Source of the DNA: an uncultured Planctomycetaceae bacterium
GTDB lineage: Bacteria; Planctomycetota; Phycisphaerae; UBA1845; UTPLA1
Assembly (NCBI GenBank): GCA_964581285.1
Contig: CAZONT010000001.1
Span: 1,450-59,909, forward strand
Length of the DNA: 58,460 nucleotides
Reading direction: 5' to 3'
This document shows, one piece after another, positions 20,414 through 48,296 of the stretch (position 1 is the stretch's first letter; every line of letters begins with the position of its first letter). The notes beneath the pieces are model-generated. The model saw nothing but the letters and a program-made list of their open reading frames with translations, searched no databases and was not told the DNA's origin. The position numbers and the translations under genes are program-made.

Positions 20414-20418
20414 GGGTC

Positions 20419-21741: not shown

Positions 21742-21819
21742 GATCCGACTCCTTTCGGATGACCCCGCGACGGACTCGTGAAGTGCGACGCGGGCTAACA
21801 ATCCTTTGGCGGGGAGTCT

Positions 21820-21862
21820 AACAAAAGAGCAGCGGCAGGCAACTCGGGTCACCTGCCGCTGC
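21820..21862 (-). terminator. Rho-independent terminator after the LTXXQ-protein gene
   Basis: Perfect 11-bp stem gcagcggcagg/cctgccgctgc (21829-21839 / 21852-21862) with a 12-nt loop, followed on the minus strand by UCUUUUGUU. Confidence 0.55.
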
Positions 21863-21899
21863 GGAAATGGCTTTGGTTTCCGGGAGGGATCCTGATCGT

Positions 21900-22532
21900 C
21901 TAGCCGCGACCGCCGCCGCCGCCCCCACGACCGCCCGGGCCGCCCCATTGCGGGGGCGTAATGCCGCGCTCCTTCATGCGTCCTTCGAGGGCCTGGCGGT
22001 AGGCCATGCGGCGAGCCCGCTCATCGGGGTTTCGCGACTCGGAGCGCGACTTGCGCTCTTCGCGGGAGGCATTGCCGCCTCCGAAGAGGTTGCGCATGCG
22101 TTCGCGAGCCTTTTCGCGGTCCTGCTCGGACATCTCGGTGCGGCGCTTCTCAAATTCCTTCATGCGCTCCTGCATTTCGTCGATTTCCTTGTCCAGAATT
22201 TCTTTCTTCTTTTCTGCGGAGGCCTTGAAGTACTCGTCCATTTCTTTGCGCTCGCGCTCCTCGCGCATCGCGCGCATGTTTTCCATGATCTGGCGGCGCT
22301 GATCGTCGGTGAGGTCTTCGCGCTCCATGACCTGTCGCATAGTCTCGAAACCGCGCTGCGGCGACTGGATTTCCTTGAGACTGGCGACCTGAAACTCCTT
22401 CGGAACTTCGACTTGTGGTTTCTCGGGTTCCGATTTCGACCGAGTCAGCCCCCAGACGGCCGCTCCGGCGCCGGTCATGCAGGCAACTGCGACAATGATC
22501 ATCTTTCGTGAACTCAAAAATGACGTTTCCAT
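21900..22532 (-). CDS. Secreted/anchored Lys/Glu-rich coiled-coil protein with LTXXQ motif (Spy/CpxP-like?)
   Basis: N-terminal hydrophobic segment IIVAVACMTGAGAAVWG. ..REDLTDDQRRQIMENMRAMREE... Gly/Arg tail. ATG at 22532. Confidence 0.5.
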   Translation of the reverse strand: METSFLSSRKMIIVAVACMTGAGAAVWGLTRSKSEPEKPQVEVPKEFQVASLKEIQSPQRGFETMRQVMEREDLTDDQRRQIMENMRAMREERERKEMDEYFKASAEKKKEILDKEIDEMQERMKEFEKRRTEMSEQDREKARERMRNLFGGGNASREERKSRSESRNPDERARRMAYRQALEGRMKERGITPPQWGGPGGRGGGGGGRG

Positions 22533-25122: not shown

Positions 25123-26649
25123 ATGCACGGACGGACCCGGGTATTCATCGGATGGATCGGATCAATTCTCTTAGTCACTTCGGCACTGGCCCAGACAACA
25201 TCGCCACCTGAAACCCCCACCGCACCCGCGGCGGGCGGAGTCGCTCCAGCGGAGCCGGCGAACACGACGCCTGCGGAACCTGCGGCGACCGACAAGCCGG
25301 CGGAGCCCGCGGCGACGGGCAGCGATACGGCCAAGTATCCCTACGAGGGCGAGGTATCGGGCGACAATGTTTACGTCCGAAGCGGGGCGGGCGTTAACTG
25401 GTACCCGACTACCAAGCTCGGGCGCGGCACCATGGTTCGCGTCATGGGGGCGCAGTCCGGATGGTTGCGGATCGTTCCGCCGCCGGGCAGCTTCAGCTAC
25501 ATCGACGCGTCGGCGGTCGAACGAACGGCTGGAACCGACAAGGCGGTCACGAAAGTTGACGGCGTCTATGTCAAGGCCGGCGGTGACCTGAGCGCGCGCA
25601 AGACCGCGGCGCAACAGATTCTGCCGAAGGGGACCGAGGTCACAATCCTTGGCGAGACCGAGGGCTTCCTGAAGATCGTTCCGCCGAGTGGTTCGTACCT
25701 GTACATCAGCGATCAGTTCGTGCAGGCGGTCGGGCCCGAGGGGCCGAAGTTTGCAAGGACAGATTCGGCGAATCGTCCGACTTCGCCGGCGAAGGCAAAG
25801 CCGACCGAATCTTCGCCGGACGGATCATCCGTCGTTGCGTCGGGGACGACGGCCGGAGAGGAGAGTTCGCACACATCCGCGTCGCCATCGACGGCTGCTC
25901 CCAGTGCGCCGGCCGGCAAGCATCGCACGATGCTTGAGTCGGTCGAGGCGGACTTGCGGACGCGACTCGCATCGGACCAGACCGGCGGCTACCAGGAATT
26001 GATCGATCGGTACAAGCCGCTCGCCGAGCAAGACGAGGACCGCGTCGCGCAGGCCGTGGCGAAGGCGCGGCTCGATCAACTTCAATCGCGGGCGGAGTTG
26101 GAACAGATTGTCGCGGACGCACGAAACAAGACGCAGTCAACCGATTCGTTTGTCGAGAAGCTCGGCGAAGATCGTCGACGGATTCAGGATGCCAAGCTGC
26201 CGGCCGAGAAGCGATTCTGGGATTTCAAGGGCGAGCTGCGGCGCAGTCTTGCCTTCAACGAGCTGCCTAACCGCTACCGATTGGCCGATCCGGAGTCGAA
26301 CCGGACGATCGCCTACATTGACGTACCCATTTCGTCCGGGATCGACGCGGCACAGTTTCTGAGCCGGTATGTCGGCATCCGGATTTCGAGCCAGTATTTC
26401 AGCACGGCGGCGAAGGTGACTATCGCGGTCGCAAGCGAGATGGTCGCGTTGCCGTCACCGGTTCCGGGCCAGGGGCAGCCCGGGGTTACGGGCCCGGTGT
26501 CTTTCAACGGCGGTGTTCAGCCGTCGGTTTCGCCGTCCAACCCTCCGCCGACTACCATTACTCCGCCGCCTGCAGCGTCTCCCCGGCCGGCACCCCCGGT
26601 CACCAGCGGCAACGTTGAGTACGTCGAGGCGACGGCACCCGGTCGGTAG
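25123..26649 (+). CDS. Secreted protein with two bacterial SH3-like repeats, coiled-coil middle and Pro-rich tail
   Basis: Signal peptide IGSILLVTSALAQ. Repeats GDNVYVRSGAGVNWYPTTKLGRGTMVRVMG..GWLRIVPP and DGVYVKAGGDLS..GTEVTILGETEGFLKIVPP. Confidence 0.6.
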   Translation: MHGRTRVFIGWIGSILLVTSALAQTTSPPETPTAPAAGGVAPAEPANTTPAEPAATDKPAEPAATGSDTAKYPYEGEVSGDNVYVRSGAGVNWYPTTKLGRGTMVRVMGAQSGWLRIVPPPGSFSYIDASAVERTAGTDKAVTKVDGVYVKAGGDLSARKTAAQQILPKGTEVTILGETEGFLKIVPPSGSYLYISDQFVQAVGPEGPKFARTDSANRPTSPAKAKPTESSPDGSSVVASGTTAGEESSHTSASPSTAAPSAPAGKHRTMLESVEADLRTRLASDQTGGYQELIDRYKPLAEQDEDRVAQAVAKARLDQLQSRAELEQIVADARNKTQSTDSFVEKLGEDRRRIQDAKLPAEKRFWDFKGELRRSLAFNELPNRYRLADPESNRTIAYIDVPISSGIDAAQFLSRYVGIRISSQYFSTAAKVTIAVASEMVALPSPVPGQGQPGVTGPVSFNGGVQPSVSPSNPPPTTITPPPAASPRPAPPVTSGNVEYVEATAPGR

Positions 26650-26732
26650 CCGGCCCCGACGTAAGGGGGGCGCCCGTTGACCGGCGCAGCGCCCAGGGTC
26701 GAACGAAGCGACAATGGCGGCCGGAGGTCTGC

Positions 26733-27245
26733 ATGAAGAGCTTTCTGGTCGTCGCCGCAGACGGCAAACGATACGGACCGGCCGACGTGCCGACGCTGTT
26801 GCGTTGGATCCAAGAGGGGCGGCTGGTAGCGGGGACCGTGCTGGTCGATACGGAGAGCGGTGCGCAACAGAGCGCGTCGTCGGTGGGCGAGTTGCGCATG
26901 GCGTTCTTCGAGGCGTCGCCCGCACGACCGGCAGCGATCGATGCACTCCAGGCGACTCGGACGGCGTATCAACCTGCCGCTCCGGCCACGACGCCGCGGG
27001 CCGTTCCTGTCTCTCCGCTGGGAGTCGAGGTCAGCACGAAGAGCAAGGTCGTCGCCGGGTTGCTTGGGATTTTTCTGGGTGCGTGCGGGGCGCACCGGTT
27101 CTACCTGGGTTTTCCCGGCATCGGGATCATCATGATCCTGTCAAATTTCGCGTGTGGGATCGGCGTGATCTGGGGATTTGTCGAGGGGATCCTCTGCCTG
27201 GCGGGTGTGATGCGCGACAGCGAGGGTCGCCCGCTTCGCGATTGA
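26733..27245 (+). CDS. GYF_2-like N-terminal domain + C-terminal TM2 domain membrane protein
   Basis: ..DGKRYGPADVPTLLRWIQEGRLVAGTVLVD.. (GYF_2/DUF4339-like). ..AGLLGIFLGACGAHRFYLGFPGIGIIMIL..GVIWGFVEGILCL.. (TM2). Confidence 0.7.
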   Translation: MKSFLVVAADGKRYGPADVPTLLRWIQEGRLVAGTVLVDTESGAQQSASSVGELRMAFFEASPARPAAIDALQATRTAYQPAAPATTPRAVPVSPLGVEVSTKSKVVAGLLGIFLGACGAHRFYLGFPGIGIIMILSNFACGIGVIWGFVEGILCLAGVMRDSEGRPLRD

Positions 27246-27249
27246 TCCG

Positions 27250-29880
27250 TTACTTGCGACACTTATCGGCGAGCTCGAGCAGTCGCTCCTTCCACGGCGA
27301 TCCGCCGAGGTCGGGATGCCAGGCCCGCTCTGAATCGATGCCTCGTACGACCTCGTCACTGCGGCCGGCGTCGAGCTGCCATCGCAGCCAGTAGTAGCGC
27401 GCTTCCCAGTAGCAATCCGGCGACGTGTCACGCAGGGTGCGGTCTTCGAGCAGGCGGGCCCAGGCCTTTTCGGCGTCGCTGCGCTGGGCCGGCGTGGCCG
27501 TGTTCGAACGGGCAACCTGTTCGAGCGCTGTCGCACGATAACGGAGGTAGGCGTTGTTGCCGGGATGGGAATCGGTCAAGTCCGTGAGCAGCGGTAGAGC
27601 TTCGCTTCCGCGGCCGGCGTTGACGAGCATCCGGGCCATGCTGAACCGCACAATCGACACGTCGGCGGCCCGGGAGGGATCGGCCGTGATTGCGTCGAGG
27701 AGGCGTTGGACGATCGGCAGACTCTCGACGGCGAGGCGCCGTGCTTCGTCCGCGCGGCCGGCCAGCGAGCGCTGATCGACTTCGGCTTCCAATTCGGCCG
27801 CGGCAGCCACCAATCCGGCACCCGGCTCCATCGACTTTGCGTGATCCAGCAGGGCACGCGATGTCGCGTCGCCCGCGTCGTACTGTTTGAGTTCGCGGTG
27901 ACAGCGCAGGCGGATTGAAATTACCCGAACGACAATTCCGGGGGGGAGGCCTGTCAGATCAAGCGTTGCCAGACGCTTCAGGGCGTCGGCGTGTTGGCGG
28001 AGGCGGGGGCCGGCCATCAGCTCGGCAGAATTAATCGTTGCCTGGGCGAGAAGTTCTCGCTGCTCGGGTGACGAAGCGGCGGGCCGGAGCTGTTCCGCCA
28101 GATCGTCCCATTCGCGGACGAGCGCGCCGACGGTACGAGCGGCGTCGGCGGTCGAAAGTGTGGCGTCGCGCTGTTGCCATGCTGCCTGCCGGCAGCGGGC
28201 CGCGCCGAAGCGAGCCGCCCAGTATCGCGACGACGTCTTGGGGATTCGGGCGTAAGTCGCCTGGGCCTCATCGGCGCGGCCGGCACGCTCGAAGGCCGCA
28301 CCGGCCCGCAACACGAGTTCCTCGCTTGCGTTCGAGTCTTTTGTCTGGGCTGCGGCCTTGAGACTGATGGTCGCCAGTTCCAGTTCGTCCTCGCGGAGGG
28401 CCGAGGCCGCCACGATCGCACGCCAGGCATCGACCGCGTCCTCGACTGCGCGGCGGGCCAGGCCGGCATCCGACGCCTTGTCCGCCAGTTCGGCGAAAGC
28501 GAGCGCTGCCGGCCGCAGTTGGCCGGTTCTCCTCAGGCATTGAGCAAGCTCGAATCGTGCGGCGTCGCGCTCGGACGGGCTGGCAGCGTCCGGACGGTCG
28601 ATGAAGGCCTGCAACATGGTGGCGGCGCGGGCGTAGTCGCCGGTTGCGGCGAGCCGCCGTCCGAGCGCCAGCCGCTCGGTGGGAGACAGCGTCGCCGGGT
28701 TCGCATCGGCGGGGACGACCTGATTGAGGTAGACGTCGATGACGGCGGACCACGTTCCGCCGCGAGCGCGCTGAGCCATCAACGAGTCGAAGGCCTGCTG
28801 ACGCAGGGCGGCGGCCTGGGGTTCGTCGGACCCCTGCGATTGCAACAAGCGGTTGTACGCGGCCAGGACCGGCGCGAGCTGGAGATAGAAGCCGCCGGCG
28901 GCGGGCAGCTTCGAATCGGCTGTTTCGGCTGCGAGTTCGTCGAAGCTGCGGGCGGCTGCGGCAAAGTCACCGCGTTTCGTTGCCGTACGGCCGAGCTCGT
29001 ACTTCGCACGGGTTCGCAGTTCGCCGCTGGCGTTCGATCGGGTGATGCCCTCAAAGACGGCCAGGGCATCGTCGAGCCGGCTTGATTCACGAAACGCTAT
29101 TCCCGCACCGACGGCCGAACTCAGACGATCGTTCTGGTCGGTGCTTTCGCGTCCCACGCCGTCGAATCGTCGCAGGGCTTCGTTCAGGTCTTCGGCCCGC
29201 CAGGATTCTTTGGGTGAAGTTATCGTCGCGCGATAGACGAGGGCCCATGCGAGATTCAGCGAGCAGCGGCGGGCCACGGGGCCGACGGCGTCGGCGATGC
29301 CTTCCATCAGCAGCGGGTCTTCGTCCCGGGCCAGCAGCGTCGTGAACTCCTTGAGCGACGCATCGGCCTGACGATATTCGCGGATCGCGAGCGAAAGGCG
29401 CTGACCCAAGCGGGGCAGGGGCTGTCGAAGGCCGCTGAGGCGCTCGAATTCGTCCAGGTCGGCAGCGCACTGCTTCCGCAGAATCACGTCGGCCAACTCG
29501 ACGCGCCAACTTGCGATTGCAAACCGACGGCGACCACCGGCGGACCAGGCGGGGTCGTCCTGGACGGACAGGGACTGGCGGTAGGCGGCGACGGATTTCG
29601 AGAGGTCGGCTTCGCGGCGACCCGCATCGGAGTCCGCCTCGGCGGCGCGGGCAAAGGCACGCGCCACGAGAACTTGGTGGGCCGGCGTACCCTGCCGGAC
29701 AACTTCTTCGACGAGTTCGGGCATTCCCTCAGCGACCAGGGCTTCGGCCAGGGCGGCGTCGGCTCCCGGTAGCGCATCGCCGGCCGGACGATCTTGCGCC
29801 TCGGCCAAGGCGCACGTTGAGAACATGCACAGGCAAGCCACCGTTAGCCGTATGTTGTTTGGAAACCGGACGAGTGCCAC
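27250..29880 (-). CDS. Large secreted all-helical TPR-like repeat protein (876 aa)
   Basis: Signal peptide LCMFSTCALAEAQ. Ala/Leu/Arg-rich helical-hairpin periodicity throughout. Last gene of the exbBD operon. Confidence 0.6.
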   Translation of the reverse strand: MALVRFPNNIRLTVACLCMFSTCALAEAQDRPAGDALPGADAALAEALVAEGMPELVEEVVRQGTPAHQVLVARAFARAAEADSDAGRREADLSKSVAAYRQSLSVQDDPAWSAGGRRRFAIASWRVELADVILRKQCAADLDEFERLSGLRQPLPRLGQRLSLAIREYRQADASLKEFTTLLARDEDPLLMEGIADAVGPVARRCSLNLAWALVYRATITSPKESWRAEDLNEALRRFDGVGRESTDQNDRLSSAVGAGIAFRESSRLDDALAVFEGITRSNASGELRTRAKYELGRTATKRGDFAAAARSFDELAAETADSKLPAAGGFYLQLAPVLAAYNRLLQSQGSDEPQAAALRQQAFDSLMAQRARGGTWSAVIDVYLNQVVPADANPATLSPTERLALGRRLAATGDYARAATMLQAFIDRPDAASPSERDAARFELAQCLRRTGQLRPAALAFAELADKASDAGLARRAVEDAVDAWRAIVAASALREDELELATISLKAAAQTKDSNASEELVLRAGAAFERAGRADEAQATYARIPKTSSRYWAARFGAARCRQAAWQQRDATLSTADAARTVGALVREWDDLAEQLRPAASSPEQRELLAQATINSAELMAGPRLRQHADALKRLATLDLTGLPPGIVVRVISIRLRCHRELKQYDAGDATSRALLDHAKSMEPGAGLVAAAAELEAEVDQRSLAGRADEARRLAVESLPIVQRLLDAITADPSRAADVSIVRFSMARMLVNAGRGSEALPLLTDLTDSHPGNNAYLRYRATALEQVARSNTATPAQRSDAEKAWARLLEDRTLRDTSPDCYWEARYYWLRWQLDAGRSDEVVRGIDSERAWHPDLGGSPWKERLLELADKCRK

Positions 29881-29934
29881 CCGAACTCCTTTCGGGCCTG
29901 ATGTACGGACCGCGATCCATCGCGTCTGCCGAGA

Positions 29935-30411
29935 TTATGATCGGCTTGTGGTCGTTGTTCCAGCGACTTCTACGGCGCCAACCGCGAATTGCACGTTTCG
30001 GAACCCGGCGCGGACACAGGCGTCCAGCGTTGAAATCACGAACTGATACCGCACAGCGGGGGCTGCGGCGATGACGATGCGGCCCTGGGGATCAGCCCCC
30101 TGGCTAAGCTTTCGCTTGAGGAAGTCGCTGAGGGCATCGAATGAGTCGCTGGTCATGCCCTGGCCAGTCACCTCAATGCGGCAGCGGTCGGTGGACGTGC
30201 CCGGTGAGAGCGCAATGCGGACGCCGGGTGCAAAGGAAGGGGGGCCGGCGGCAGGTCCTGCGTCGGATGGGAGCCGGGTTGGCAGGACGCCTTCGCTTAT
30301 CGCAAAGCTCGTGCCCATCATGAAGAAGATCAGGATTACCATCACGACGTCAACGAGAGGCGCCAGATTAGGCGTCCCGCTTCGGGGCTGGAATCTCCTG
30401 AACGAGTACAC
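29935..30411 (-). CDS. exbD: ExbD/TolR-family biopolymer transport protein (paralog 2)
   Basis: ..NLAPLVDVVMVILIFFMM.. TM motif plus periplasmic domain. Starts immediately after the previous stop (0-nt gap). Confidence 0.85.
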   Translation of the reverse strand: MYSFRRFQPRSGTPNLAPLVDVVMVILIFFMMGTSFAISEGVLPTRLPSDAGPAAGPPSFAPGVRIALSPGTSTDRCRIEVTGQGMTSDSFDALSDFLKRKLSQGADPQGRIVIAAAPAVRYQFVISTLDACVRAGFRNVQFAVGAVEVAGTTTTSRS

Positions 30412-30849
30412 CTATTGGGCCTCCGGATCGCGGCCGCCCGCGGTTGCGAATGTCACATGGCCGATCCTGGCCCGGCTGCAAAGGAGCAGAATCGGCTCGA
30501 CGTGGCGGTATTCCAGTTGGCGGTCGGCACGGATGTAGCAGGAGACGGCCGGGTCACGAGCGGCCTCGCGATTCAGTCGTTCGCCCAAGTCGGCAATGGA
30601 TAGCGACTGCTCGCCAACGCGATATTCGGGAACGCCGGCCGCGCCGGCGACGTTGACGATGACGCGTCGCTCGGGTGATTTTGCCGCTTCGTGCTTTGCC
30701 GCGCTGGACTGCGGCAGGTCGACCCGCACGCGCTCGCGCTGGGCGAGCCGACCGGTCAGCATGAAGAAGATGATGAGACACATCATCACGTCGACGAGCG
30801 GTGCGAGGTTCAGATCGAACTCGACGGCCCCGCTTCGGCGGAAACGCAT
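30412..30849 (-). CDS. exbD: ExbD/TolR-family biopolymer transport protein (paralog 1)
   Basis: ..DLNLAPLVDVMMCLIIFFML.. plus periplasmic domain. Confidence 0.85.
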   Translation of the reverse strand: MRFRRSGAVEFDLNLAPLVDVMMCLIIFFMLTGRLAQRERVRVDLPQSSAAKHEAAKSPERRVIVNVAGAAGVPEYRVGEQSLSIADLGERLNREAARDPAVSCYIRADRQLEYRHVEPILLLCSRARIGHVTFATAGGRDPEAQ

Positions 30850-30864
30850 GATGGCTGCCCAATC

Positions 30865-31710
30865 CTATCCAATTCGCTCGGTCTTCTTGGGGGCGATGAA
30901 GACGCCCGAGCGCGGCGCAGCATCGGGTTCGACGCGCGGCGGCTTGATTGGCGTCAGACCCGAAGTGCTCGAGATTACCTGGAAGTGCTCGATGAGCTCG
31001 ATGGACTTCGCGGTCGCCTGGGTACTCAGGGAGTCAATGCGGTTGCGGCAGACGCCGTAGAAGCCGAGGGCGAGCACCGCCAGTGCCAGCCCCAGAAACG
31101 TGTTGACCAGTGCGAGTGAAATGCCGCCGGCAAGGTCTTCGGGCTTATAGGTGCCGTGAGTCTCCTGCATCTTGCCGAAGGCGCGGATCATGCCGAGGAC
31201 AGTGCCGAGCAGACCCATGAGCGGACCGAGATTCCCGAGGATGTGGAGGTATTCGGCGCGGCGCTGGAGGCGATTGTTCCAGGCGGAGGCCGCCTCCTCC
31301 GTCGCCTGGCGCATGGCTGCGAAGCCGAGCTTGCCCTGCCGCAGGCCGGCAAGGAGGGACTGGGCGAACATGGTGCGGCTCGTTTGCAACCGCGCGACGC
31401 ACTCCTTGAAGCGGCGGCTTTCGATGAGCTCACGGGCTTCGTCGATCTCGGCGTCCGGCAACATGGTCTTGCGGCGGACGGTCCGAAACTGTTCGACGAT
31501 GATCGCCACGGCGGCGATCGACATGACGGCGATGACAAGGCCGGGCAGTTCGGCGCCGCGCAGCAGGATCTGGAAGAAGCTCGGAGCTGCAGTGTTCCCG
31601 GTCGCGGCCTGTGCGAAGGCCGACTCGACCGCCGTCCCCACGATCAACACCATGATCCCCGCTGCGAAGTCGCGGGATATGCGAAGCGACATGCCGTCTT
31701 TCCGAAACAC
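30865..31710 (-). CDS. exbB: MotA/TolQ/ExbB proton-channel protein with N-terminal signal-like extension
   Basis: ..HILGNLGPLMGLLGTVLGMIRAF..GGISLALVNTFLGLALAV... GTG at 31710 or ATG at 31692. Confidence 0.85.
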   Translation of the reverse strand: MFRKDGMSLRISRDFAAGIMVLIVGTAVESAFAQAATGNTAAPSFFQILLRGAELPGLVIAVMSIAAVAIIVEQFRTVRRKTMLPDAEIDEARELIESRRFKECVARLQTSRTMFAQSLLAGLRQGKLGFAAMRQATEEAASAWNNRLQRRAEYLHILGNLGPLMGLLGTVLGMIRAFGKMQETHGTYKPEDLAGGISLALVNTFLGLALAVLALGFYGVCRNRIDSLSTQATAKSIELIEHFQVISSTSGLTPIKPPRVEPDAAPRSGVFIAPKKTERIG

Positions 31711-31716
31711 GATGCG

Positions 31717-32775
31717 CTACTCGTTTGCGCGGCTTTCAGCGATGTGTTTATACGTGCCGCCGCCAACCTCTGCAATCCGGCGGAGGATGGGGTTGGCGGA
31801 TTCGCCGCCGTCAAATGCGAAGAGAATCGTGTGGACGATCGGTGCGACGGCTTTGGCGCGATGTTGTTGCACCGCCTCGAGCACCTGCGAGTTCTGCTCT
31901 CCGAAGTCGCCGTCCGAAAGCAGGAACAGGACATCTGCATGCAGCGACAACCCCTGCCGTAACGCGTCGAGCGGTTGGGTCCGGCCGCCGGGCGACATGG
32001 CGCGGATCGCGTCAAACGCGCGGCGCTTGTTTTCGGCGGTTGCCGGCAGCAGCGTCGGCGAAAGCGACTGGGCTGGTCCTTCGGAAAACCAGATTACGTC
32101 GAAGCTCTGATGATCGTGCAACGAGCCGATCGCGCGAAGCAATTCGCGTTGAAGAAGGTGAAAGGTGTCGTGCATGGAGCCGGAGCGGTCGAGGACGTAG
32201 ACATACGACGAGGCCTGTTGCCCGGCGCCGACGCCCCACAGGCATCCGACTGCGCCGCCTGACGCCAGTTCGCGTTGTGCCGTGGGCGTACCGCCATTCG
32301 CTGCGCCGCCTCCGCCCGATCCAATGCCGATGATGTCGCTGCGACCCGCGAGTGTTCCCGCGCCGCCGATCGGTCCTTCCGCGCCGGCGACGATGGCCGG
32401 CACAGGCGTGCCGGGGGAGGCAGAGGCGGGCTCCGTGACTTCGCGGAGTCGGGTCATGGAGCGGAGATCGGGGATTTCGGTTTTCCGTGTTGCGATGTCC
32501 GGCGAGGCGGCGTCAGTCGCCGATTCGGTGATGACGCCGACTTCGAACTCGATCGTCCGCTCGGCCGGCGTCGTGCGGCCGCGGAGCATGAGCATTGCAG
32601 CAACGAGCAGAGCAGCGTGAAGCAGTACGCTGGTCACGACGGAAGGCACGCTGGCGACACTCGTGGGGGCCGTGTGGCCGCGCGACCGCAATGCGACTTC
32701 GGCCAGAGCCGCGGCATCCGGACTTGTCTCAGGAGTCGCGGCGGATGCGACGGAGCTTGCAGGGGCCCGCGACAT
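31717..32775 (-). CDS. Membrane-anchored von Willebrand factor A (vWA) protein with TonB/TolA-like SxxxH anchor helix
   Basis: Single TM VVTSVLLHAALLVAAMLML (S-x3-H), ~140-aa Pro/Ala/Gly-rich linker, then a vWA domain with MIDAS residues DRSGS..GGRTQ..LLSDGD. Gene starts 0 nt after the folD stop. Confidence 0.75.
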   Translation of the reverse strand: MSRAPASSVASAATPETSPDAAALAEVALRSRGHTAPTSVASVPSVVTSVLLHAALLVAAMLMLRGRTTPAERTIEFEVGVITESATDAASPDIATRKTEIPDLRSMTRLREVTEPASASPGTPVPAIVAGAEGPIGGAGTLAGRSDIIGIGSGGGGAANGGTPTAQRELASGGAVGCLWGVGAGQQASSYVYVLDRSGSMHDTFHLLQRELLRAIGSLHDHQSFDVIWFSEGPAQSLSPTLLPATAENKRRAFDAIRAMSPGGRTQPLDALRQGLSLHADVLFLLSDGDFGEQNSQVLEAVQQHRAKAVAPIVHTILFAFDGGESANPILRRIAEVGGGTYKHIAESRANE

Positions 32776-33639
32776 TCAGGTCCGAACCTCCCGCGCGGCT
32801 TTTGCGACGTTTGCCATCAGCATGGCGACGGTCAGCGGGCCCACTCCGCCCGGTACCGGCGTGATCCAGCTCGCCACGGACGCCGCTTCGGTGTAGCGCA
32901 CGTCGCCGACGGTTGAGGGGCGGCCGTCCGGACCGCCGATCCGGTTGGTTCCGACGTCGATCACGATCGCGTCGGGCTTGATGTGCTCCGCGCCGATGAG
33001 GCCCGGTCGACCGATGGCAACGGCCAAAACGTCCGCCTGACGCGTCTGCGCTGCGAGATCGCGGGTGCGACTGTGACAGTGCGTCACGGTGGCGTTTGCC
33101 GCCAGCAACATCGCTGCGAGTGGCTTGCCGACGATGTTGCTTCGGCCGACGACGACGGCGTGCTTGCCAGTGAGATCGATGCCTGTTGAACGAATGCACT
33201 CGAAGGCCGCGGCGGCGGTGCAGGGCGGCAACGCATCGCGGCCCATGACGAGGCGTCCGAGGTTGGCCGGGGAGACGCCTTCCACGTCTTTCTCGGGTGC
33301 GATTCGCTGCTGGAGGTCGGCGGGGTCGATAGCGGCCGGCGTCGGCTCGAATACCAGAATGCCGCTGATGTCGGCGTCGTTGTTGAGGGCATCGATCATG
33401 GCGATCGCATGCGCGATGGTCGCGTCGGCCGGTAGTTTCAGTAATCGATGGTCAATACCCAGGCGCGACGCCTCGCGCGCCTGGGCGGCGGCGTAGGAAT
33501 GAGCAGCGGGGTCGTCGCCGATCAGGAGCGCGGCGAGCACGACCGACGATTGCCGGCTCGTCAGTTCGGCCACGTCGCGCATGATGCGCTGCCGGAGATC
33601 GTCTGCGAGTCGCTTGCCATCGATGATCCGAGCAGCCAT
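32776..33639 (-). CDS. folD: Bifunctional 5,10-methylene-tetrahydrofolate dehydrogenase/cyclohydrolase
   Basis: MAARIIDGKRLADDLR.., ..VVGRSNIVGKPLAMLL.., ..ITPVPGGVGPLTVAML.. canonical FolD motifs. Confidence 0.9.
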   Translation of the reverse strand: MAARIIDGKRLADDLRQRIMRDVAELTSRQSSVVLAALLIGDDPAAHSYAAAQAREASRLGIDHRLLKLPADATIAHAIAMIDALNNDADISGILVFEPTPAAIDPADLQQRIAPEKDVEGVSPANLGRLVMGRDALPPCTAAAAFECIRSTGIDLTGKHAVVVGRSNIVGKPLAAMLLAANATVTHCHSRTRDLAAQTRQADVLAVAIGRPGLIGAEHIKPDAIVIDVGTNRIGGPDGRPSTVGDVRYTEAASVASWITPVPGGVGPLTVAMLMANVAKAAREVRT

Positions 33640-33644
33640 GGCGG

Positions 33645-34676
33645 TTACTTGGGTTTCGTTGTTGATGTCAAAGAGTCGGCGTAACGCTTGAGCGTCGCCG
33701 CCAGTCGATCATCGGTGATATCGAACGTTCGTTCAAATATCTCGCTGCGCTCCCGGGCGGTGAGTCCGCCGCGTCGAAGTGCGCGGATGCAGTCTCCCAT
33801 CGACTTTGCCTTTTCCTTGACGGCCCAATGTGTGAGCAGCCAGGCCTGCGCGTAGGCCGTTGCGGATGCGGGCTGGCCGGGTTTGAAGACGCCATCGTCG
33901 GACAGGAGCCGGCGCCATGGCAGCAGTTGCCCGGCTTTCGCGGCGATGAGGTAGTCGTTGAGCCGAAGTTCGTTGATGCCGAGCGTGCCAAGGGAGAGCG
34001 GATCGATCGGAACCTCGAACTGGCTCGCCAACCCCTCGCCGAGCCATGCCGGTTGCGTCGCCGTTCTAGGCAAGACGCCAAATGCCGAAAGCGCGGCGTG
34101 GGCGACTTCGTGTTGGACGGTCGTGCAGAAGATCTGCTCTTCGAGTTGATCGAGTTTCGCAAATGCTTCTTCGCCCTGTTTCAGGATTGCAGCGCGTCGG
34201 GCGGATTCGCCGGCGTCGGCTGTGCTGCCCAGTGCCCGGATCGGGTTAACGAGTCGGCTGATTTCCGATCTTTTTTCGGGAATCACGCCGACTCTCGTGA
34301 AGTCGAGCAGGACAACTCTTTCGGCGTCCGGGTCGTAGAAGCCATAGAGGTCTGTTGTGGCCGTGAAGCCCACGCCGTTCGCGTAGTTTTGAAAGCCGCT
34401 TGGATCGTCGAAGACGGAAACCATAATGGGATCACGTGGCCGGGTGGTTGCGACTTCGAGCCGGTTCGCCAGAGAGTACACAGCTCCGTACGTTGCCTCC
34501 ATTCGGTTGAGCAAACTGCCCGGGCCTTGCCGGTTTGCGAGGGTCGCTTCCTTCGGCACGATGACGAAATGCGGAGTCTGTGGATAGAGACTCCGCTCTT
34601 CCCCCCCGGTTTGGGCAGATGCGAGGAGGGCTGCGAACAACAGGCACGCCGAAGTCGGAAGAATCTTGCGCGGCAT
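33645..34676 (-). CDS. DUF1570-family secreted protein (HExxH-containing, putative metallopeptidase-like)
   Basis: Signal peptide CLLFAALLASAQ. ..TTVQHEVAHAAL.. Planctomycete-typical family. Assignment from memory of the family, not a search. Confidence 0.55.
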   Translation of the reverse strand: MPRKILPTSACLLFAALLASAQTGGEERSLYPQTPHFVIVPKEATLANRQGPGSLLNRMEATYGAVYSLANRLEVATTRPRDPIMVSVFDDPSGFQNYANGVGFTATTDLYGFYDPDAERVVLLDFTRVGVIPEKRSEISRLVNPIRALGSTADAGESARRAAILKQGEEAFAKLDQLEEQIFCTTVQHEVAHAALSAFGVLPRTATQPAWLGEGLASQFEVPIDPLSLGTLGINELRLNDYLIAAKAGQLLPWRRLLSDDGVFKPGQPASATAYAQAWLLTHWAVKEKAKSMGDCIRALRRGGLTARERSEIFERTFDITDDRLAATLKRYADSLTSTTKPK

Positions 34677-34742
34677 GACGAAGCACCGGCCGCTCGCTGA
34701 CCTGCGAGCGATGATGAGATGATATTCAGGCGAGCGCGGAGA

Positions 34743-35657
34743 TTACACCGGGGCCGGCTGGGGCTCGCGGCTCAGCTTGAACCTGGGCGCGTTCTTGTCG
34801 CCCTTGTAGGCGGTCAGGTCGACTTTCTTCTCGCTCAGCAGAGATTGAAGGTACTTCTGGGCTTCCGGAAAGACCGTCTCGGGATCGGCAAGCGAGTGAT
34901 TCCACAACTTGGGCCAGTCGAACATCAGGAATCCGTCATAGGCCAGACCCTTGAGCAGGGCGACCTGCAGGGGAACATCCGCGTCGCCTTTGCCCGGTGG
35001 CTCGATCGATTCGACGCCGTTGGACGCGAGCTTGCCGTCGGTGAGTCGGACCATGCCGATCATTCCGCCGAGGCGCTTGATCGAGATGCTCGGCGTCTCG
35101 CCGCGCGTGAGTGCGGCAAATTGCGACCAGCACGCCCGGACGGACGGCGACTCGGCTGCATCAACGAGGAACCAGATGGCCTGGCTGTCGACGAAATCGC
35201 CGCTGTTTTCGATCAGAAGGGTGACGCGATGTTCGAGGGCCGTCGGCACCAACTCGCGCACGGCCGTCGCAATGCGATTCAGCACGACCTCGCGCGATTC
35301 GTAGCCGAGGAACGCGCGCTTTGGGATTTCCGAACCGAAGACGCGGACGTATGGGCATCCGACCTTGCCGGCCAGCTCGATGTACTGGCGAGCTTCGGCC
35401 TGGTTGTCCGCGACGCGGCGGCGGTCGCGGTAGTGAAACGCGGCGGAGCTACTGAGGCACACAAGTTCGATGCCGGCCTCGGTGAACATGGCCCGCGTCG
35501 ATGCGGGGTTCGCTGTCAATTCCGGGCAGAGTGTCAGATCCATCTGGCCGCGGAGGCCACGCAATTCGACGCCGTGATAGCCCATTGCCTTCGCGTTGTT
35601 GACGAGGGTCGGCAAATCCCAGTTGGGGCAGCCGACGCTGGAAAAGCCAATCTTCAT
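34743..35657 (-). CDS. Sugar phosphate isomerase/epimerase (xylose isomerase-like TIM barrel)
   Basis: MKIGFSSVGCPNWDLPTLVNNAKAMGYHGVELRGL.. typical AP_endonuc_2 N-terminus. 304 aa. Confidence 0.8.
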   Translation of the reverse strand: MKIGFSSVGCPNWDLPTLVNNAKAMGYHGVELRGLRGQMDLTLCPELTANPASTRAMFTEAGIELVCLSSSAAFHYRDRRRVADNQAEARQYIELAGKVGCPYVRVFGSEIPKRAFLGYESREVVLNRIATAVRELVPTALEHRVTLLIENSGDFVDSQAIWFLVDAAESPSVRACWSQFAALTRGETPSISIKRLGGMIGMVRLTDGKLASNGVESIEPPGKGDADVPLQVALLKGLAYDGFLMFDWPKLWNHSLADPETVFPEAQKYLQSLLSEKKVDLTAYKGDKNAPRFKLSREPQPAPV

Positions 35658-35752
35658 GCCGCGGCTCCGGTGTCAAATCGTCGAGTCTTCGTGAATTATT
35701 TCACAAGATAGCGTCTGAGCCGTGCAGGCGTCAATGCGGTGAAACATGCGGG

Positions 35753-38700
35753 TCACAACTCTCGCCCGTGCCACATGCGATAGAGAGCCGGCAGGACGAC
35801 GAGCGTCAACACCGTGCTGGAAACGATGCCGCCGACAACGACCGTAGCCAGCGGGCGCTGCACCTCGGCGCCCGTTCCGGTCGCCAGCGCCATCGGCACG
35901 AACCCCAGGGCCGCAACGAGCGCGGTCATCAAGACCGGGCGGAGTCGCGTGAGCGAGCCGTTGATGATCGCTCCATCCACGTCCTGTCCCTGTTCGCGCA
36001 GATGGTTGATGAACGTAATCATCACAAGTCCATTGAGAACGGCGACGCCGGACAGGGCGATGAAGCCGACCGCCGCCGAGATCGAAAACGGCATGTCGCG
36101 CAACCACAGCGAAACGATGCCTCCCGTGAGGGCGAGGGGGACGCCGGTGAAGACCAACAACGCATACTTCATTGAATGAAAGGTGCCGAAGAGCAGAACA
36201 AAGATCAGGAAGAGGCAGATCGGCACGACGACGAGCAAACGTCGCCGGGCGGCGATCAGATTCTCGAACTGGCCGCCCCAGGAGATCCAGGCGCCCGGCG
36301 TCAGCTTGACCTCCGCGTCGATCCTCCGCTGCGCCTCGGCGACGAACGAGCCGATATCCCGATCGCGAACGTTGCACTGTACTACGACGCGTCGCTTGCC
36401 ATCCTCCCGACTGATTTGGTTCGGACCCTCCTCGATTCGAATCGTGGCGACTTCGCTCAGAGGGATAAACCTGCCGCGAACGCGGGCGTCAACTTCGTTG
36501 TTCCCGGATTGATGCCGCGCGTCGCCGGGCTCGCGCCGGGGCAACGGGATTGGGAGATTGCGGATCGCCTCGGGGTTCTTTCGAACGTTTTCGGGAAGAC
36601 GTACGACCACGTGAAAGCGACGATCGCCCTGGAAGACCAGTCCCGCCTCGCGGCCGCCGATCGCGATTGCGACGACGTCTTGAACGTCGGCCACGTTCAG
36701 GCCGTACCGCGCGAGCGCCGCGCGATCGATCTCGACGCTCAACACGGGCAGTCCGCTCGTTTGCTCGACCTTGACGTCCGCCGAACCGCGAACGTCTTTG
36801 AGAATGCGGGCGATCGCGCCGGCGGGCGGCTCCATCTGTTCGACGTCGTCTCCGAATACCTTCACCGCAACGTCGCCGCGAACGCCGGCGATCAGCTCGT
36901 TGAAGCGCATCTGAATCGGCTGCGTGAACTCATAATTGTTTCCGGGCAGTGCCTGGACCGCGGACTCGATCCGCCGGACGAGGTCGAGCTTTGACTCGGA
37001 TGGATTCGGCCACTCGGGCCGCGGCTTGAGGATCACAAACGTGTCGGAGACGTTCGGCGGCATCGGATCGGATGCCATTTCGGCCGTTCCGGTCTTCGAG
37101 AACGCGAATGCCACCTCCGGGAAACGGGAGACGGCTTTCTCGACTTCGAACTGCATGTGCGACGACTGCGTCAGCGATGTGCTTGGAATACGGATTGCGT
37201 GCAGCGCGATATCTCGCTCGTCAAGGGTCGGAACGAACTCGTCCCCGAGCGTGAAGAAGAGGCCGAGCGATGCCGCAAACGCCACGACCGCCAACACGAA
37301 TACCGTCTTCGGGATTCGAATTGCGAGGCGCACCGTCGGCTGGTAGGCCTGTTTGACCCATCGGACGAGGAAATTCTCGCGCTCCCGTACTCGCCCCGTA
37401 ATCCCGATCGCGACCATCGCGGGGATAAACGTCAGCGAGAGGATGAAGGCGGCCGCGAGGGCGAAAATCACCGTCATGGCCATCGGGTGGAACATCTTTC
37501 CCTCGATGCCGGTGAGGGCGAGGATCGGGAAGTAGACGATGATGATGATTGCTTCGCCGAACGCGGTCGCGCTGCGAACCTCCTTACTCGCAGCCAGCAC
37601 GACTTCGAGGCGCTCGGCGAGCGTGAGCTTCCGGCCCAGTTCGTGTTGGCGTTCGGCGAGCAAGCGCAGACAGTTTTCAACAATGATGACCGCCCCATCG
37701 ACGATGAGGCCAAAGTCGATGGCCCCCAGACTCATCAGATTTCCGCTGACGCGTGTCTGCACCATCCCAATCGCCGTCAGCAGCATGGAGAGCGGAATCG
37801 CAAGTGCGGTGATTGCCGCGGCGCGGATGTTTCCAAGCATCAGAAACAGGATCACGATGACGAGAATCGCCCCTTCGGCCAGGTTCGTGCTGACGGTCTG
37901 GATCGTCGCATCCACGAGCTTCGTTCGATTCAGCACGGTCTTGGCATGAATGTCGGGCGGCAGTCCCCTGTTGATCTCCCGCAGCTTCGCATCGACGGCC
38001 GCCGAGACCGTCCGGCTGTTGGCACCAATCAGCATGAACGCAGTGCCAACGACGACCTCGTTCCCGTTCTCGCTGGCGCTGCCCGTTCGAAGCTCCCTTC
38101 CAATCCGAACGTCCGCCACGTTGCGGACGTAGATCGGCGTTCCGTCCTCGACACCGAGTACGATGTTTGCGATCTCGTCGTGGCCCCGAATCCTCCCCGG
38201 GGCTCGGACGACGTACGCCTCTCCCTCGTGCTCGATGTAGCCGGCTCCGACGCTGGCATTGTTCCGCTCCAGGGCGTCGATGACATCCTGAAACGTCAGT
38301 CCATAGGAGATCAGCTTCATCGCGTCGGGCTCGACGTGATACTGCTTGACGTATCCGCCGATCGCGTCGACGCCGGCCACATCCTTCACGCCCTTGAGTT
38401 GCGGGCGGATGATCCAGTCCTGCACGGTCCGCAGATAGGCCGCCTTCTCCAGCGGAGTCGTCAACCGCTCGCCCTCCGGCGTGAGGTATGCCCCATCGGG
38501 TTGCCAGCCGGCCCGGCCATCGACGATCGTCGCGCCCTTACCGTCCGGGTGAACGTACTCGACCGTCCACATGTAGACCTCGCCCAAACCAGTCGAGATC
38601 GCACCCATCTTCGGCTCGGCCCCGGGCGGAAGGTTCTCGCGGGCCTCCTGCAGACGCTCGTTGACCTGCTGCCGCGCAAAATAGATGCTCACGTCATCGT

Positions 38701-38992
38701 CGAAGATGGCCGTCACCTGCGAAAAGCCGTTGCGCGAGAGCGATCGGGTGGATTGCAATCCGGGAATGCCGGCCAAGGCGGTTTCAATCGGGAAGGTAAT
38801 CTGCTTCTCGACCTCGAGCGGCGACAGGGCCGGATAGACGGTATTGATCTGAACCTGGTTGTTTGTGATGTCCGGCACTGCATCGATCGGCAATCGCCGG
38901 AGCGAATAGGCCCCGCCGATCGCCGCGACGATGGTCAACAGCACCACGAGATAGCGGTGTTGGATTGAGAATTGAAGGACGCGTTCAAGCAT
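35753..38992 (-). CDS. czcA: Heavy-metal efflux RND pump, CzcA/CusA family
   Basis: 1079 aa with 12-TM RND architecture. N-terminus MLERVLQFSIQHRYLVVLL.. and conserved HME-RND blocks. Confidence 0.9.
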   Translation of the reverse strand: MLERVLQFSIQHRYLVVLLTIVAAIGGAYSLRRLPIDAVPDITNNQVQINTVYPALSPLEVEKQITFPIETALAGIPGLQSTRSLSRNGFSQVTAIFDDDVSIYFARQQVNERLQEARENLPPGAEPKMGAISTGLGEVYMWTVEYVHPDGKGATIVDGRAGWQPDGAYLTPEGERLTTPLEKAAYLRTVQDWIIRPQLKGVKDVAGVDAIGGYVKQYHVEPDAMKLISYGLTFQDVIDALERNNASVGAGYIEHEGEAYVVRAPGRIRGHDEIANIVLGVEDGTPIYVRNVADVRIGRELRTGSASENGNEVVVGTAFMLIGANSRTVSAAVDAKLREINRGLPPDIHAKTVLNRTKLVDATIQTVSTNLAEGAILVIVILFLMLGNIRAAAITALAIPLSMLLTAIGMVQTRVSGNLMSLGAIDFGLIVDGAVIIVENCLRLLAERQHELGRKLTLAERLEVVLAASKEVRSATAFGEAIIIIVYFPILALTGIEGKMFHPMAMTVIFALAAAFILSLTFIPAMVAIGITGRVRERENFLVRWVKQAYQPTVRLAIRIPKTVFVLAVVAFAASLGLFFTLGDEFVPTLDERDIALHAIRIPSTSLTQSSHMQFEVEKAVSRFPEVAFAFSKTGTAEMASDPMPPNVSDTFVILKPRPEWPNPSESKLDLVRRIESAVQALPGNNYEFTQPIQMRFNELIAGVRGDVAVKVFGDDVEQMEPPAGAIARILKDVRGSADVKVEQTSGLPVLSVEIDRAALARYGLNVADVQDVVAIAIGGREAGLVFQGDRRFHVVVRLPENVRKNPEAIRNLPIPLPRREPGDARHQSGNNEVDARVRGRFIPLSEVATIRIEEGPNQISREDGKRRVVVQCNVRDRDIGSFVAEAQRRIDAEVKLTPGAWISWGGQFENLIAARRRLLVVVPICLFLIFVLLFGTFHSMKYALLVFTGVPLALTGGIVSLWLRDMPFSISAAVGFIALSGVAVLNGLVMITFINHLREQGQDVDGAIINGSLTRLRPVLMTALVAALGFVPMALATGTGAEVQRPLATVVVGGIVSSTVLTLVVLPALYRMWHGREL

Positions 38993-39021
38993 GGGCTTGA
39001 CCCTCTTCGGAAAGGTTGGAA

Positions 39022-40293
39022 TCAGTGCACATGCTCTGCCGCCGCCTTGCCGAACTCGGCCTTCAAGATGAACGAGCCGCTCGCCACATATTCATCGCCC
39101 GCGTTCAAGCCCGAGAGGATTTCGACTTGCCGGTCGCTCCTTCGACCGATCGTCACCGCGCGCTTTTCGAAGCCGTCGCGTACTCTGACGAACACCACCG
39201 GCTGATTGTCGATTGTCTGTAACGCCGAATCGGGCACGACGATCGGCGCATCGGCCGTCGAAACCGCGACATCGGCGAAGACGAACATGCCCGGCAGCCA
39301 GCGTCGGTCCGGGTTGGAGAGGACGACGCGGGCCTGCCCGGTTCGCGTGGCTTCGTCAATCCGAGGGCTTACATACTCGACCCGGCCGCGTTGAGCCGAC
39401 GCCTTCCCTGCAGCGCGGATGTCGACCGAAATGCCAACGGTGACATGGGGGACGTCCTGCTGATACACGGTCACCTGGACCCATACGACGGACAGGTCCG
39501 CCAGGACGAAACACGTTTTTTCAGGGTTGACCACCTCGCCGAGCGTCAGGTGCTTCTCGATCACGGTGCCGGCGAACGGCGCACGGATCTCATAGCGTGA
39601 AAAGTCGGTGTCCTTCTCGCGATGCAGCGTCGCGACCTGGTCCTCCGAGAGGCCGAGGGCGTGGAGTTTTGCCTCCGCCGTGCGGTGCTCGATGTCCATC
39701 TCCGCGAGCGTTTGCCTGGCCCGAAGCAGCTCCTCCTCCGGCGCAATCTTCTGCGAGAAGAGTTTCTCAATCCGTTTCAGATTCGCCTCGGCCAACTCGT
39801 GCCGCGACGACGCCGCGAGGTCTGACGCCTTTGCGTCGGCCAATTCCCGGCTGTCGAGGATTGCCAGGACCTCGCCGGGCGTAACGGTGTCGCCGAGGTT
39901 CTTGCGCACCTCACGCACCATTCCGGTTACGCGGGGCACGATGTGCGCGACGCGGTCCGCGTCCAGCTGCACTTCGCCTGGAAGCGTGGCGGTTTGTTCG
40001 ATCTTTCCGGGACCGGCCGTCGCGATCTCGATGCCGTGCGTCTTGATCGCTTCGGGAGAGAGGTGGACCAAGCCGTCCTCGTGCTCCTTGTGCTCGCTGC
40101 GCTCGTGCTCCTGATCGCCAGGCGCATGCACATGATCTGCACTCTCGCCGTGTTCGTCTTTCGCGGAAGCAGCCGGCCGAGTACCCCGTTCCTTCATCCA
40201 TTGCCGCATGCCGAGCGCGCCCGCCGCACCTCCGAACAGGAGCGCGACTGTTACGACGGCAAGCGATCTACTCCTGGCGACTGTCAATGACAC
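39022..40293 (-). CDS. czcB: Efflux RND periplasmic adaptor (CzcB/CusB-type MFP) with His/Glu-rich N-terminal tract
   Basis: Anchor LAVVTVALLFGG. DEHGESADHVHAPGDQEHERSEHKEHEDGLVH. HlyD-like lipoyl and barrel motifs. Confidence 0.85.
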   Translation of the reverse strand: MSLTVARSRSLAVVTVALLFGGAAGALGMRQWMKERGTRPAASAKDEHGESADHVHAPGDQEHERSEHKEHEDGLVHLSPEAIKTHGIEIATAGPGKIEQTATLPGEVQLDADRVAHIVPRVTGMVREVRKNLGDTVTPGEVLAILDSRELADAKASDLAASSRHELAEANLKRIEKLFSQKIAPEEELLRARQTLAEMDIEHRTAEAKLHALGLSEDQVATLHREKDTDFSRYEIRAPFAGTVIEKHLTLGEVVNPEKTCFVLADLSVVWVQVTVYQQDVPHVTVGISVDIRAAGKASAQRGRVEYVSPRIDEATRTGQARVVLSNPDRRWLPGMFVFADVAVSTADAPIVVPDSALQTIDNQPVVFVRVRDGFEKRAVTIGRRSDRQVEILSGLNAGDEYVASGSFILKAEFGKAAAEHVH

Positions 40294-40305
40294 GGAATCA
40301 CTCCT

Positions 40306-40515
40306 TCAGAACCCGTACGCCGCGAACGCGGATCGGGCGACGCTCGCTGCAAAGTCAACATATTGGGTGGCGGCCTGCGCGATCGCTGACAGGCCGGCCT
40401 CCACGACTGTCTGCTGCGCTTTCGGTGTGCAGCCCGTGAAGCATGCCGGAAGGAGCAGTGGTGCCACGAGGAAAAATGTTCGCCTCGCGATGGGCCCTCT
40501 ATCGCGTCGCATCAT
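40306..40515 (-). CDS. Candidate 69-aa small lipoprotein wedged between czcC and czcB
   Basis: ATGA overlap with the czcC stop and 12 nt before the czcB start. Arg-rich n-region, hydrophobic core and lipobox-like LLPAC/FTGC. High GC3. Confidence 0.45.
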   Translation of the reverse strand: MMRRDRGPIARRTFFLVAPLLLPACFTGCTPKAQQTVVEAGLSAIAQAATQYVDFAASVARSAFAAYGF

Positions 40516-42077: not shown

Positions 42078-42169
42078 GAAACTCGACTCCACAGACCGAC
42101 GAGGCGCAAACAGCGACGAACGGCACCGCTCGTCGCCGGCCGATGATCAGGAATTGATGTGGAGTTGGA

Positions 42170-45755: not shown

Positions 45756-45763
45756 GCTTGTAC

Positions 45764-48285: not shown

Positions 48286-48296
48286 GCGTTTGCCTC

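Follow-up and report, generated by a model that had tools for sequence, protein, structure and literature searches.

A vWA gene and its neighbours

The DNA considered here is a stretch of 58,460 nucleotides (the window) from contig CAZONT010000001.1 (assembly GCA_964581285.1) of an uncultured Planctomycetaceae bacterium, placed by GTDB in the Phycisphaerae; this DNA is found in bioreactor metagenomes. Its minus strand carries a gene for a protein with a single transmembrane (TM) helix, a long linker and a C-terminal von Willebrand factor A (vWA) domain. This gene is the first of an operon, vWA-exbB-exbD1-exbD2-TPR, which also encodes an ExbB/TolQ-like protein, two different ExbD/TolR-like proteins and a large tetratricopeptide repeat (TPR) protein (Table 1). 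All five genes lie on one strand, and the gaps between them are 6, 15, 0 and 54 nt, the second exbD gene starting immediately past the first. In this manuscript, we use the term SxxxH to refer to a Ser/His pair at positions i and i+4 of the anchor helix, as in TonB and TolA.

Table 1. Features of the vWA operon and its upstream neighbour, in window coordinates (aa, amino acids; ORF, open reading frame; AF2, AlphaFold2; pLDDT, predicted local distance difference test; MIDAS, metal ion-dependent adhesion site).
Feature	Position	Strand	Basis and remarks
Putative vWA-type force transducer gene, SxxxH-anchored, 352 aa	31717..32775	-	ORF; Pfam VWA_3/VWA_2; ~56 close homologs; AF2 model
N-terminal tail, aa 1-45, predicted cytoplasmic	32641..32775	-	Start ATG 32773-32775, abuts folD stop
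Single TM helix, aa 46-64 (VVTSVLLHAALLVAAMLML)	32584..32640	-	Hydropathy; AF2 helix; conserved S49/H53; TonB/TolA-type motor-binding motif
Candidate D-box ("motor box") strand IEFEVGVIT, aa 74-82 with core F76-T82; ExbD periplasmic domains proposed to dock here	32530..32556	-	Sequence pattern
Linker, aa 65-178, predicted disordered	32242..32583	-	Composition; pLDDT; conserved islands in alignment consensus
vWA domain, aa 179-350, complete MIDAS D196-x-S198-x-S200 (32176-32190), T266, D288	31726..32241	-	Pfam; AF2; Foldseek; alignments
ExbB/TolQ-like motor subunit, 281 aa	30865..31710	-	Pfam MotA_ExbB 2.8e-26; starts 6 nt past vWA stop, same frame
ExbD/TolR-like subunit 1, 145 aa, TM Asp in PLVDV	30412..30849	-	Pfam ExbD 6.8e-23; 7ajq_F alignment 2e-9, Asp aligned
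ExbD/TolR-like subunit 2, 158 aa, divergent paralog, TM Asp in PLVDV	29935..30411	-	Pfam ExbD 7.4e-18; 7ajq_F alignment
TPR protein, 876 aa, signal-peptide-like N-terminus, candidate periplasmic partner; conserved last gene of module	27250..29880	-	TPR_16/TPR_6
folD, upstream neighbour, stop abuts vWA start	32776..33639	-	Pfam and NCBIfam FolD

The anchor is the sole strongly hydrophobic segment of the vWA protein (Kyte-Doolittle peak 2.4), and AF2 extends the helix slightly at both ends, to residues 43-66. S49 (codon 32629-32631) and H53 (codon 32617-32619) lie within it at the i/i+4 spacing. The tail that precedes it (~45 residues) is enriched in Ala, Ser and Pro. The linker that follows has a length of ~115-125 residues, depending on where its end is placed (residue 65 to ~178-190), and contains Gly (18%), Ala (15%), Thr (10%), Ser (8%) and Pro (7%) but no (PX)n repeats; we predict it to be disordered because AF2 assigns a pLDDT below 50 to residues 78-173. 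A conserved LWGVG motif at residues 179-183 marks the border, just ahead of the vWA fold.

The vWA domain is matched by Pfam VWA_3 over residues 192-343 (E=7.6e-10) and modelled with pLDDT values above 90 over residues 190-320. Foldseek superposes the model on MIDAS-type vWA domains, namely those of ITIH1 (6fpy, 4e-12), anthrax-toxin receptors, CaV alpha2-delta and CLCA1. The MIDAS residues are contributed by the motifs DRSGS (D196, S198 and S200), GGRTQ (T266) and LSDGD (D288); all are invariant in an alignment of 51 sequences with 24-91% identity to the query (A1), and invariant or nearly so in a wide alignment (A3) as well. An earlier, sequence-only reading of this gene was therefore correct in describing a sole TM helix with Ser and His at i/i+4 and a vWA domain with a complete MIDAS, for which Pfam, AF2 and Foldseek agree and all five residues are present. 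Its spacer of ~140 residues rich in Pro, Ala, Gly and Thr is real as a Gly/Ala/Thr-rich segment, but is shorter than stated and, at 7% Pro, is not Pro-rich in the sense of TonB.

The start codon used here differs from that of the record. The contig's recorded protein, P0003 (292 residues), begins at M61, inside the helix, and is missing the part encoded by window positions 32595-32775 (-), that is, the tail and most of the TM helix (residues 46-60), S49 and H53 included. Three observations favour the longer start at 32775: conservation in homologs, the GGGAGG located 11 nt upstream of an ATG that comes directly after the folD stop codon (TGA), and the codon-position bias of substitutions. Relative to an 88%-identical ortholog (locus L006), codons 1-60 contain 7, 2 and 14 substitutions at codon positions 1, 2 and 3, respectively, and the remainder of the gene has a third-position excess likewise (26, 6 and 70). 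Because of this excess in codons 1-60, we consider the tail and the TM helix to be translated.

On the opposite strand, antisense ORFs of up to 312 residues with high GC content at third codon positions (GC3) overlap the ExbD, ExbB and vWA genes (30071-32620, +), and a crude GC3-based gene picker favoured these over the real minus-strand genes. We rejected them as high-GC artefacts, since Pfam domains and conserved homologs are found only for the minus-strand products. A promoter and terminator consensus scan of 26600-35800 performed no better than on shuffled sequences, and was uninformative.

Of the motor subunits, the ExbB-like protein aligns to TolQ (8odt, 9kpz) and to ExbB (5sv0, 7ajq), with TolQ as the best PDB match, and it retains the Thr equivalents of TolQ T145 and T178 (the ring threonines). 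Like long-form ExbB proteins, it has an additional hydrophobic segment near its N-terminus (residues 14-33). The TPR protein has sub-threshold matches to the TPR models of YbgF and BatC. Among the ~40 window ORFs scanned (all but a few short ones and those at the 3' end), there is no TonB_C, TolA, TolB, Pal or TonB-dependent receptor.

Conservation of the anchor, the candidate post-helix strand and the gene linkage

S49 and H53 are each at least 90% conserved in alignment A1, and they are the only TM columns for which this is so. A word-indexed search retrieved ~56 close relatives, all from Phycisphaerae-type metagenome-assembled genomes (MAGs) and all named "hypothetical", and a repeat with a 90-sequence profile gave essentially the same Phycisphaerae set, again all "hypothetical". 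When 1.84 billion cluster representatives were searched exhaustively with HMMER, the family reached much further, with 5875 matches at E<=1e-3, of which 1900 had E<=1e-10. Of the 145 best-scoring representatives, 113 are full-length-like (300-450 residues), and 89 of these (79%) have SxxxH in an uncharged N-terminal stretch, typically in the context (P/S)W..S...H, whereas shuffled helices of the same composition give this spacing in 7%. The Ser and the His are thus kept in close orthologs and in distant homologs alike. The full TonB/TolA register, S-x3-H-x6-L-x3-S (SHLS), is approximated as S-x3-H-x6-(L/F)-x3-T in most of the close family.

A second element that resembles TonB lies just beyond the helix. 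Loll et al. 2024 (PMC10907165) described how the ExbD dimer captures a short TonB strand just outside the membrane, the D-box (QPISVTMVTPAD), which has the pattern hydrophobic-polar-hydrophobic-polar-hydrophobic-hydrophobic-polar; the equivalent TolA/TonB element is named the "motor box" in PMC12204202 (Mol Biol Evol 2025). In the vWA protein, F76-E-V-G-V-I-T82 fits this pattern at an offset of 12 from S+16. The corresponding segment of E. coli TonB, ISVTMVT, which agrees with the residue numbers in the D-box paper, is at an offset of 13. Of 45 close-family members, 39 (87%) have the six-residue core of the pattern at an offset of 9-17 (mode 13), as opposed to 5.9% of shuffled sequences. For the wider family the frequency is only 18% (4.5% in shuffles), and other subfamilies carry a different post-helix motif. 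As a sequence pattern at the TonB register, this D-box-like motif, which the first reading had not seen, adds support to the idea that the protein is a transducer.

The linkage to motor genes was evaluated in 80 related loci from a one-genome-per-species collection plus three sets obtained by exact protein look-ups, whose six-frame ORFs were searched with the window proteins. All are from Planctomycetota MAGs except one motif-less match from Anaerolineales. Of the close-family loci, 29 extend at least 3 kb downstream of the vWA gene, and in every one of them ExbB comes immediately downstream, accompanied by two ExbD genes; the TPR gene is nearly always present. At greater distance (25-35% identity), ExbB is found within 3 kb downstream in 13 of 20 motif-bearing loci versus none of 6 motif-less ones (Fisher p=0.015, for loci that are not phylogenetically independent). 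The gene order in distant Planctomycetia loci is vWA, a signal-peptide TPR protein (~370 residues), ExbB, ExbD, ExbD. That these four kinds of gene remain linked although their order has changed argues for function rather than inherited synteny.

In L048 (5012-7615) and L053 (6137-8525), two tandem SxxxH-vWA paralogs lie upstream of TPR-ExbB-ExbD-ExbD, and the N-terminus of each paralog contains a CxxC..CxxC zinc ribbon, which Pfam Zn-ribbon models match weakly. In the anammox-type and related homologs (L051, L054, L055 and L059-L062), the SxxxH helix and the vWA domain are both kept. Directly upstream of the SxxxH-vWA gene in L064 (3605-5059), L069 (6747-7946) and L079 (6288-7532) is a gene for a conserved secreted protein of ~350-400 residues without a Pfam match, which may be a further component of the module in that Planctomycetia lineage.

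Proposed mechanism and alternative explanations

We think it probable that vWA-exbB-exbD1-exbD2-TPR encodes an envelope machine driven by the proton motive force, with the 352-residue protein in the role of TonB or TolA. This agrees with the domain swap proposed in the sequence-only reading, in which an energy-transducing N-terminal module is fused to a metal-dependent adhesion domain, and which is supported by the conservation of S49 and H53, by the D-box-like motif and by the exbBD linkage, seen in every close locus and most distant motif-bearing ones, and in none of 6 motif-less relatives. The conditions that the sequence-only reading had set for its own refutation were each checked, directly or by approximation, and none of them went against it.

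In this configuration, five ExbB subunits and two ExbD subunits, one of each paralog, would make up a rotary motor (5:2) in the inner membrane, and the TM helix of the vWA protein would dock outside the ExbB ring through its S49/H53 face. The periplasmic domains of both ExbD subunits would capture the strand F76-T82 just outside the membrane, and proton-driven motor action would then pull on the flexible linker (~110 residues). The pull would reach a ligand that the C-terminal vWA domain holds, a partner at the cell wall or outer membrane whose acidic side chain would be bound by the MIDAS metal, in place of the beta-strand augmentation used by the C-termini of TonB and TolA. The secreted TPR protein would be the best candidate for this partner, or for a scaffold. 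The cellular output could be tethering of the outer membrane, as in Tol-Pal, energised uptake, or surface adhesion or motility; according to the supplement of PMC12204202, pal is absent from Planctomycetes.

Several observations weigh against this assignment. In the anchor, the Leu and Ser of SHLS are replaced by A60 and L64 in the subclade of the window protein. A profile of the N-terminal module (A2, 108 modules), compared with all PDB sequences at E<=10, gave chance matches only and failed to retrieve any TonB or TolA chain. This null result is not evidence against the assignment because the segment is too short for sequence-based homology, and for the same reason homology of the anchor to TonB/TolA, as opposed to convergence, is unproven. 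AF2 gives no strand at the D-box segment of the isolated vWA chain, so that the D-box stays a match at the level of sequence. The ExbB-like protein has Leu at the conserved Glu position of TM3 (TolQ E173 / ExbB E176). The linker is Gly-rich and floppy, not a stiff polyproline rod, and force transmission may therefore differ from that of TonB. Around the helix, the window subclade has three Arg after it and one in the 15 residues before it, which makes the charge count ambiguous. In addition, the loci compared above are not phylogenetically independent. Among the anammox-type and related loci, those with sufficient flanks (L055 and L059, both from Candidatus Kuenenia stuttgartiensis MAGs, and L060 and L061) have no ExbB or ExbD genes within 8 kb on either side; any motor would be encoded elsewhere. 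Finally, we found no experiment in the literature for any member of the vWA transducer family.

The floppy linker is also a point in favour of the alternative that we rank next, though we still regard it as unlikely: that the protein is coupled to the motor but works as a stationary tether or assembly factor, using its vWA domain to localise the motor or the TPR protein at a site on the wall or outer membrane. vWA domains often serve as stable adhesion modules, and the linker is Gly-rich rather than rigid. That SxxxH and the D-box, the two contact elements of TonB type, are both conserved suggests instead a full TonB-like work cycle, although the sequence by itself gives no evidence either way.

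We assign a slim chance to the protein being a plain vWA protein with a membrane anchor, like BatA/BatB of the aerotolerance operon or similar proteins, in which SxxxH is incidental and the neighbouring exbBD genes belong to something else, such as an orphan Ton motor. Many vWA proteins have a single N-terminal TM helix, in some relatives SxxxH occurs with no motor genes in the vicinity, and the TPR protein weakly matches the Leptospira BatC model. That match is sub-threshold, however, and the protein has no BatA_N domain, nor is there a MoxR or DUF58 neighbour among the scanned ORFs, so we rejected membership in the BatA/BatB group proper. An incidental motif also fits poorly with S and H being the only conserved TM positions, with a D-box-like motif at the TonB register, and with a linkage to exbB and two exbD genes that survives rearrangement across classes and is absent in motif-less relatives.

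The force-transducer assignment further depends on the vWA domain being periplasmic (N-in/C-out), a topology that is likely rather than proven. It is favoured by the long signal-anchor after a 45-residue tail, by the N-proximal position of the S/H pair in the helix, as in TonB, by the signal peptide of the co-encoded TPR protein, and by the zinc ribbons of the L048/L053 paralogs, which point to a cytoplasmic N-terminus. In the close family the number of Lys and Arg residues is 2.24 before the helix and 1.51 after it, the count being higher before in 20 sequences and higher after in 7. Because of the three Arg that follow the helix in the window subclade, the positive-inside rule alone does not place the vWA domain in the periplasm, and the ambiguous count was not used as decisive. 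With the reverse topology (N-out/C-in), a cytoplasmic vWA domain would regulate the motor from inside, in the manner of the NorD, CbbO and CoxE-type partners of AAA+ proteins. Such cytoplasmic vWA proteins do exist, and NorQD is among the fold matches, but the module has no AAA+/MoxR gene, and taking this together with the features just listed we consider the reverse topology very improbable.

The second class of PMC12204202 (trans-pore-helix vWA proteins), in which a vWA protein with a TolR-like Asp in its TM helix and no SHLS motif places this helix inside the TolQ-like pentamer and so replaces TolR/ExbD, likewise has a TolQ-like gene next to that of a vWA protein tethered by a TM helix; we rejected membership in this class, whose chance is virtually negligible, because the helix has no Asp and carries S/H, and because two Asp-bearing ExbD genes are adjacent, whereas the published class has no tolR/exbD neighbours.

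Relation to known systems, surrounding genes and implications

The closest counterparts of the window protein are the "vWA force transducers" that PMC12204202 described in bacteria of the Planctomycetes-Verrucomicrobia-Chlamydiae (PVC) group, with the same architecture and synteny, on the basis of computation only. That class is defined by an SHLS helix with an essential His, a disordered motor-box region, a domain II of ~100 residues (proline-rich or disordered) and a vWA C-terminus; AlphaFold3 models put the conserved His on the motor, and no deletion phenotypes were reported. We found no later paper on these proteins. The inference drawn in the sequence-only reading had thus already been published in 2025, and what is new here is a member from the Phycisphaerae, which are unmentioned in the text of PMC12204202 or the supplements examined.

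The window protein shares with this class the Ser/His of the SHLS helix, the disordered domain II of ~100 residues and the C-terminal vWA fold, as well as synteny with tolQ-like, two heterologous tolR-like and TPR genes. The F76-T82 pattern is a candidate for the motor box, although AF2 models no strand there in the isolated chain. It differs in that its subclade is without the Leu and Ser/Thr of SHLS, and in gene order: in the window the vWA gene comes first and the large (876-residue) TPR gene last, whereas in PMC12204202 the vWA genes are downstream of TPR-tolQ-tolR-tolR. The window has one transducer gene where two were reported for Tichowtungia, a situation that the tandem pairs of L048 and L053 recall (PMC12204202).

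With E. coli TonB, which works with ExbB-ExbD, the window protein has in common a signal-anchor, probably N-in, with S-x3-H, a candidate D-box-like strand ~12-13 residues beyond the helix, a long and probably periplasmic linker and exbB-exbD linkage. It is nevertheless not a true TonB: Pfam and NCBIfam detect no TonB_C, the C-terminus is a MIDAS vWA domain, and the linker is Gly/Ala-rich and disordered, without a (PX)n spacer, instead of a Pro-rich polyproline II rod. There are also two different ExbD paralogs, and no TonB-dependent transporter among the scanned ORFs. Similarity to TolA of the Tol-Pal system consists of the SxxxH anchor logic and the tolQ/tolR-like motor, and the clustered TPR protein recalls CpoB/YbgF (weak match). 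True TolA membership was rejected as well, since the protein has no TolA domain III and the scanned ORFs include no tolB-pal; nor is ybgC found nearby in the window.

The C-terminal domain resembles integrin I-domains and the vWA domains of ITIH1 and the anthrax-toxin receptor in its fold and its complete MIDAS (DxSxS, T, D), but those are eukaryotic extracellular adhesion or receptor domains without a tether to a proton motor. The Agl-Glt gliding machinery of Myxococcus combines a TolQR-type motor, TonB-like transducers, TPR proteins and the vWA adhesin CglB in one force-transmitting envelope machine. There, however, a separate lipoprotein of the outer membrane carries the vWA domain, and GltG/GltJ have TonB-type C-termini, while in the window the vWA domain is fused to the transducer.

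Upstream, folD is probably co-transcribed with the vWA gene, but it is not a conserved part of the module, as it adjoins the vWA gene in only some related loci; the same holds for the DUF1570 gene among the close-family loci. The DUF1570 protein of the window (33645-34676, -), encoded two genes upstream of vWA and adjacent in several, not all, related loci, has a signal peptide and a HEVAH (HExxH) motif, from which it could be a secreted metallopeptidase. Also encoded is a CusCBA-like tripartite efflux set of the resistance-nodulation-division (RND) type (35753-42092, -), which comprises an RND pump of 1079 residues, a membrane-fusion protein of 423 residues with a His- and Glu-rich N-terminal region, and an outer-membrane factor of 526 residues; the pump and the fusion protein adjoin the module in L001 too.

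Farther away, at 45309-50578 (-) and 18102-21948, are an isc-type Fe-S set (IscS-like, HscB, HscA, ferredoxin), LspA, MreC, MltA and a DUF1559 pseudopilin-like protein. Such pseudopilin-like proteins are typical of Planctomycetota. Given this housekeeping context, we consider the window an ordinary chromosomal region and not a mobile element. In a 686-residue protein (53742-55802, -), an animal haem peroxidase domain of full length (E=1e-153) precedes an SdrD B-like domain; this family is unusual on a planctomycete chromosome.

A broader proposal, which we put forward as possible but doubtful, is that the vWA-ExbB-ExbD2-TPR module is a main envelope-spanning force transducer of Planctomycetota, linking the proton motor to the outer layers through a MIDAS bond to an acidic residue that would be mechanically strong, as in integrins, and that would replace beta-strand augmentation. 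The proposal is based on the reported lack of pal in the phylum and on the absence of TonB_C, TolA and TonB-dependent receptors from the scanned ORFs of the window. Such a transducer might power the tethering of the outer membrane as cells divide, or bring macromolecules into the periplasm. The tandem zinc-ribbon transducers and the anammox members uncoupled from motor genes are among the subfamilies that may represent functional diversification of the system.

At least in the gene described here, automatic annotation has truncated the protein and thereby concealed its motor-binding anchor; the same can happen elsewhere in the vWA transducer family, whose members are named "hypothetical" or "VWA domain-containing" in databases. 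If the assignment is true, a 5:2 motor of the Ton/Tol type can be wired to a different output, a metal-dependent adhesion module, and the processes powered by protons at the bacterial outer membrane would include more than nutrient import and Pal mobilisation. The PVC bacteria, whose envelopes are atypical, would also gain a candidate force transducer.

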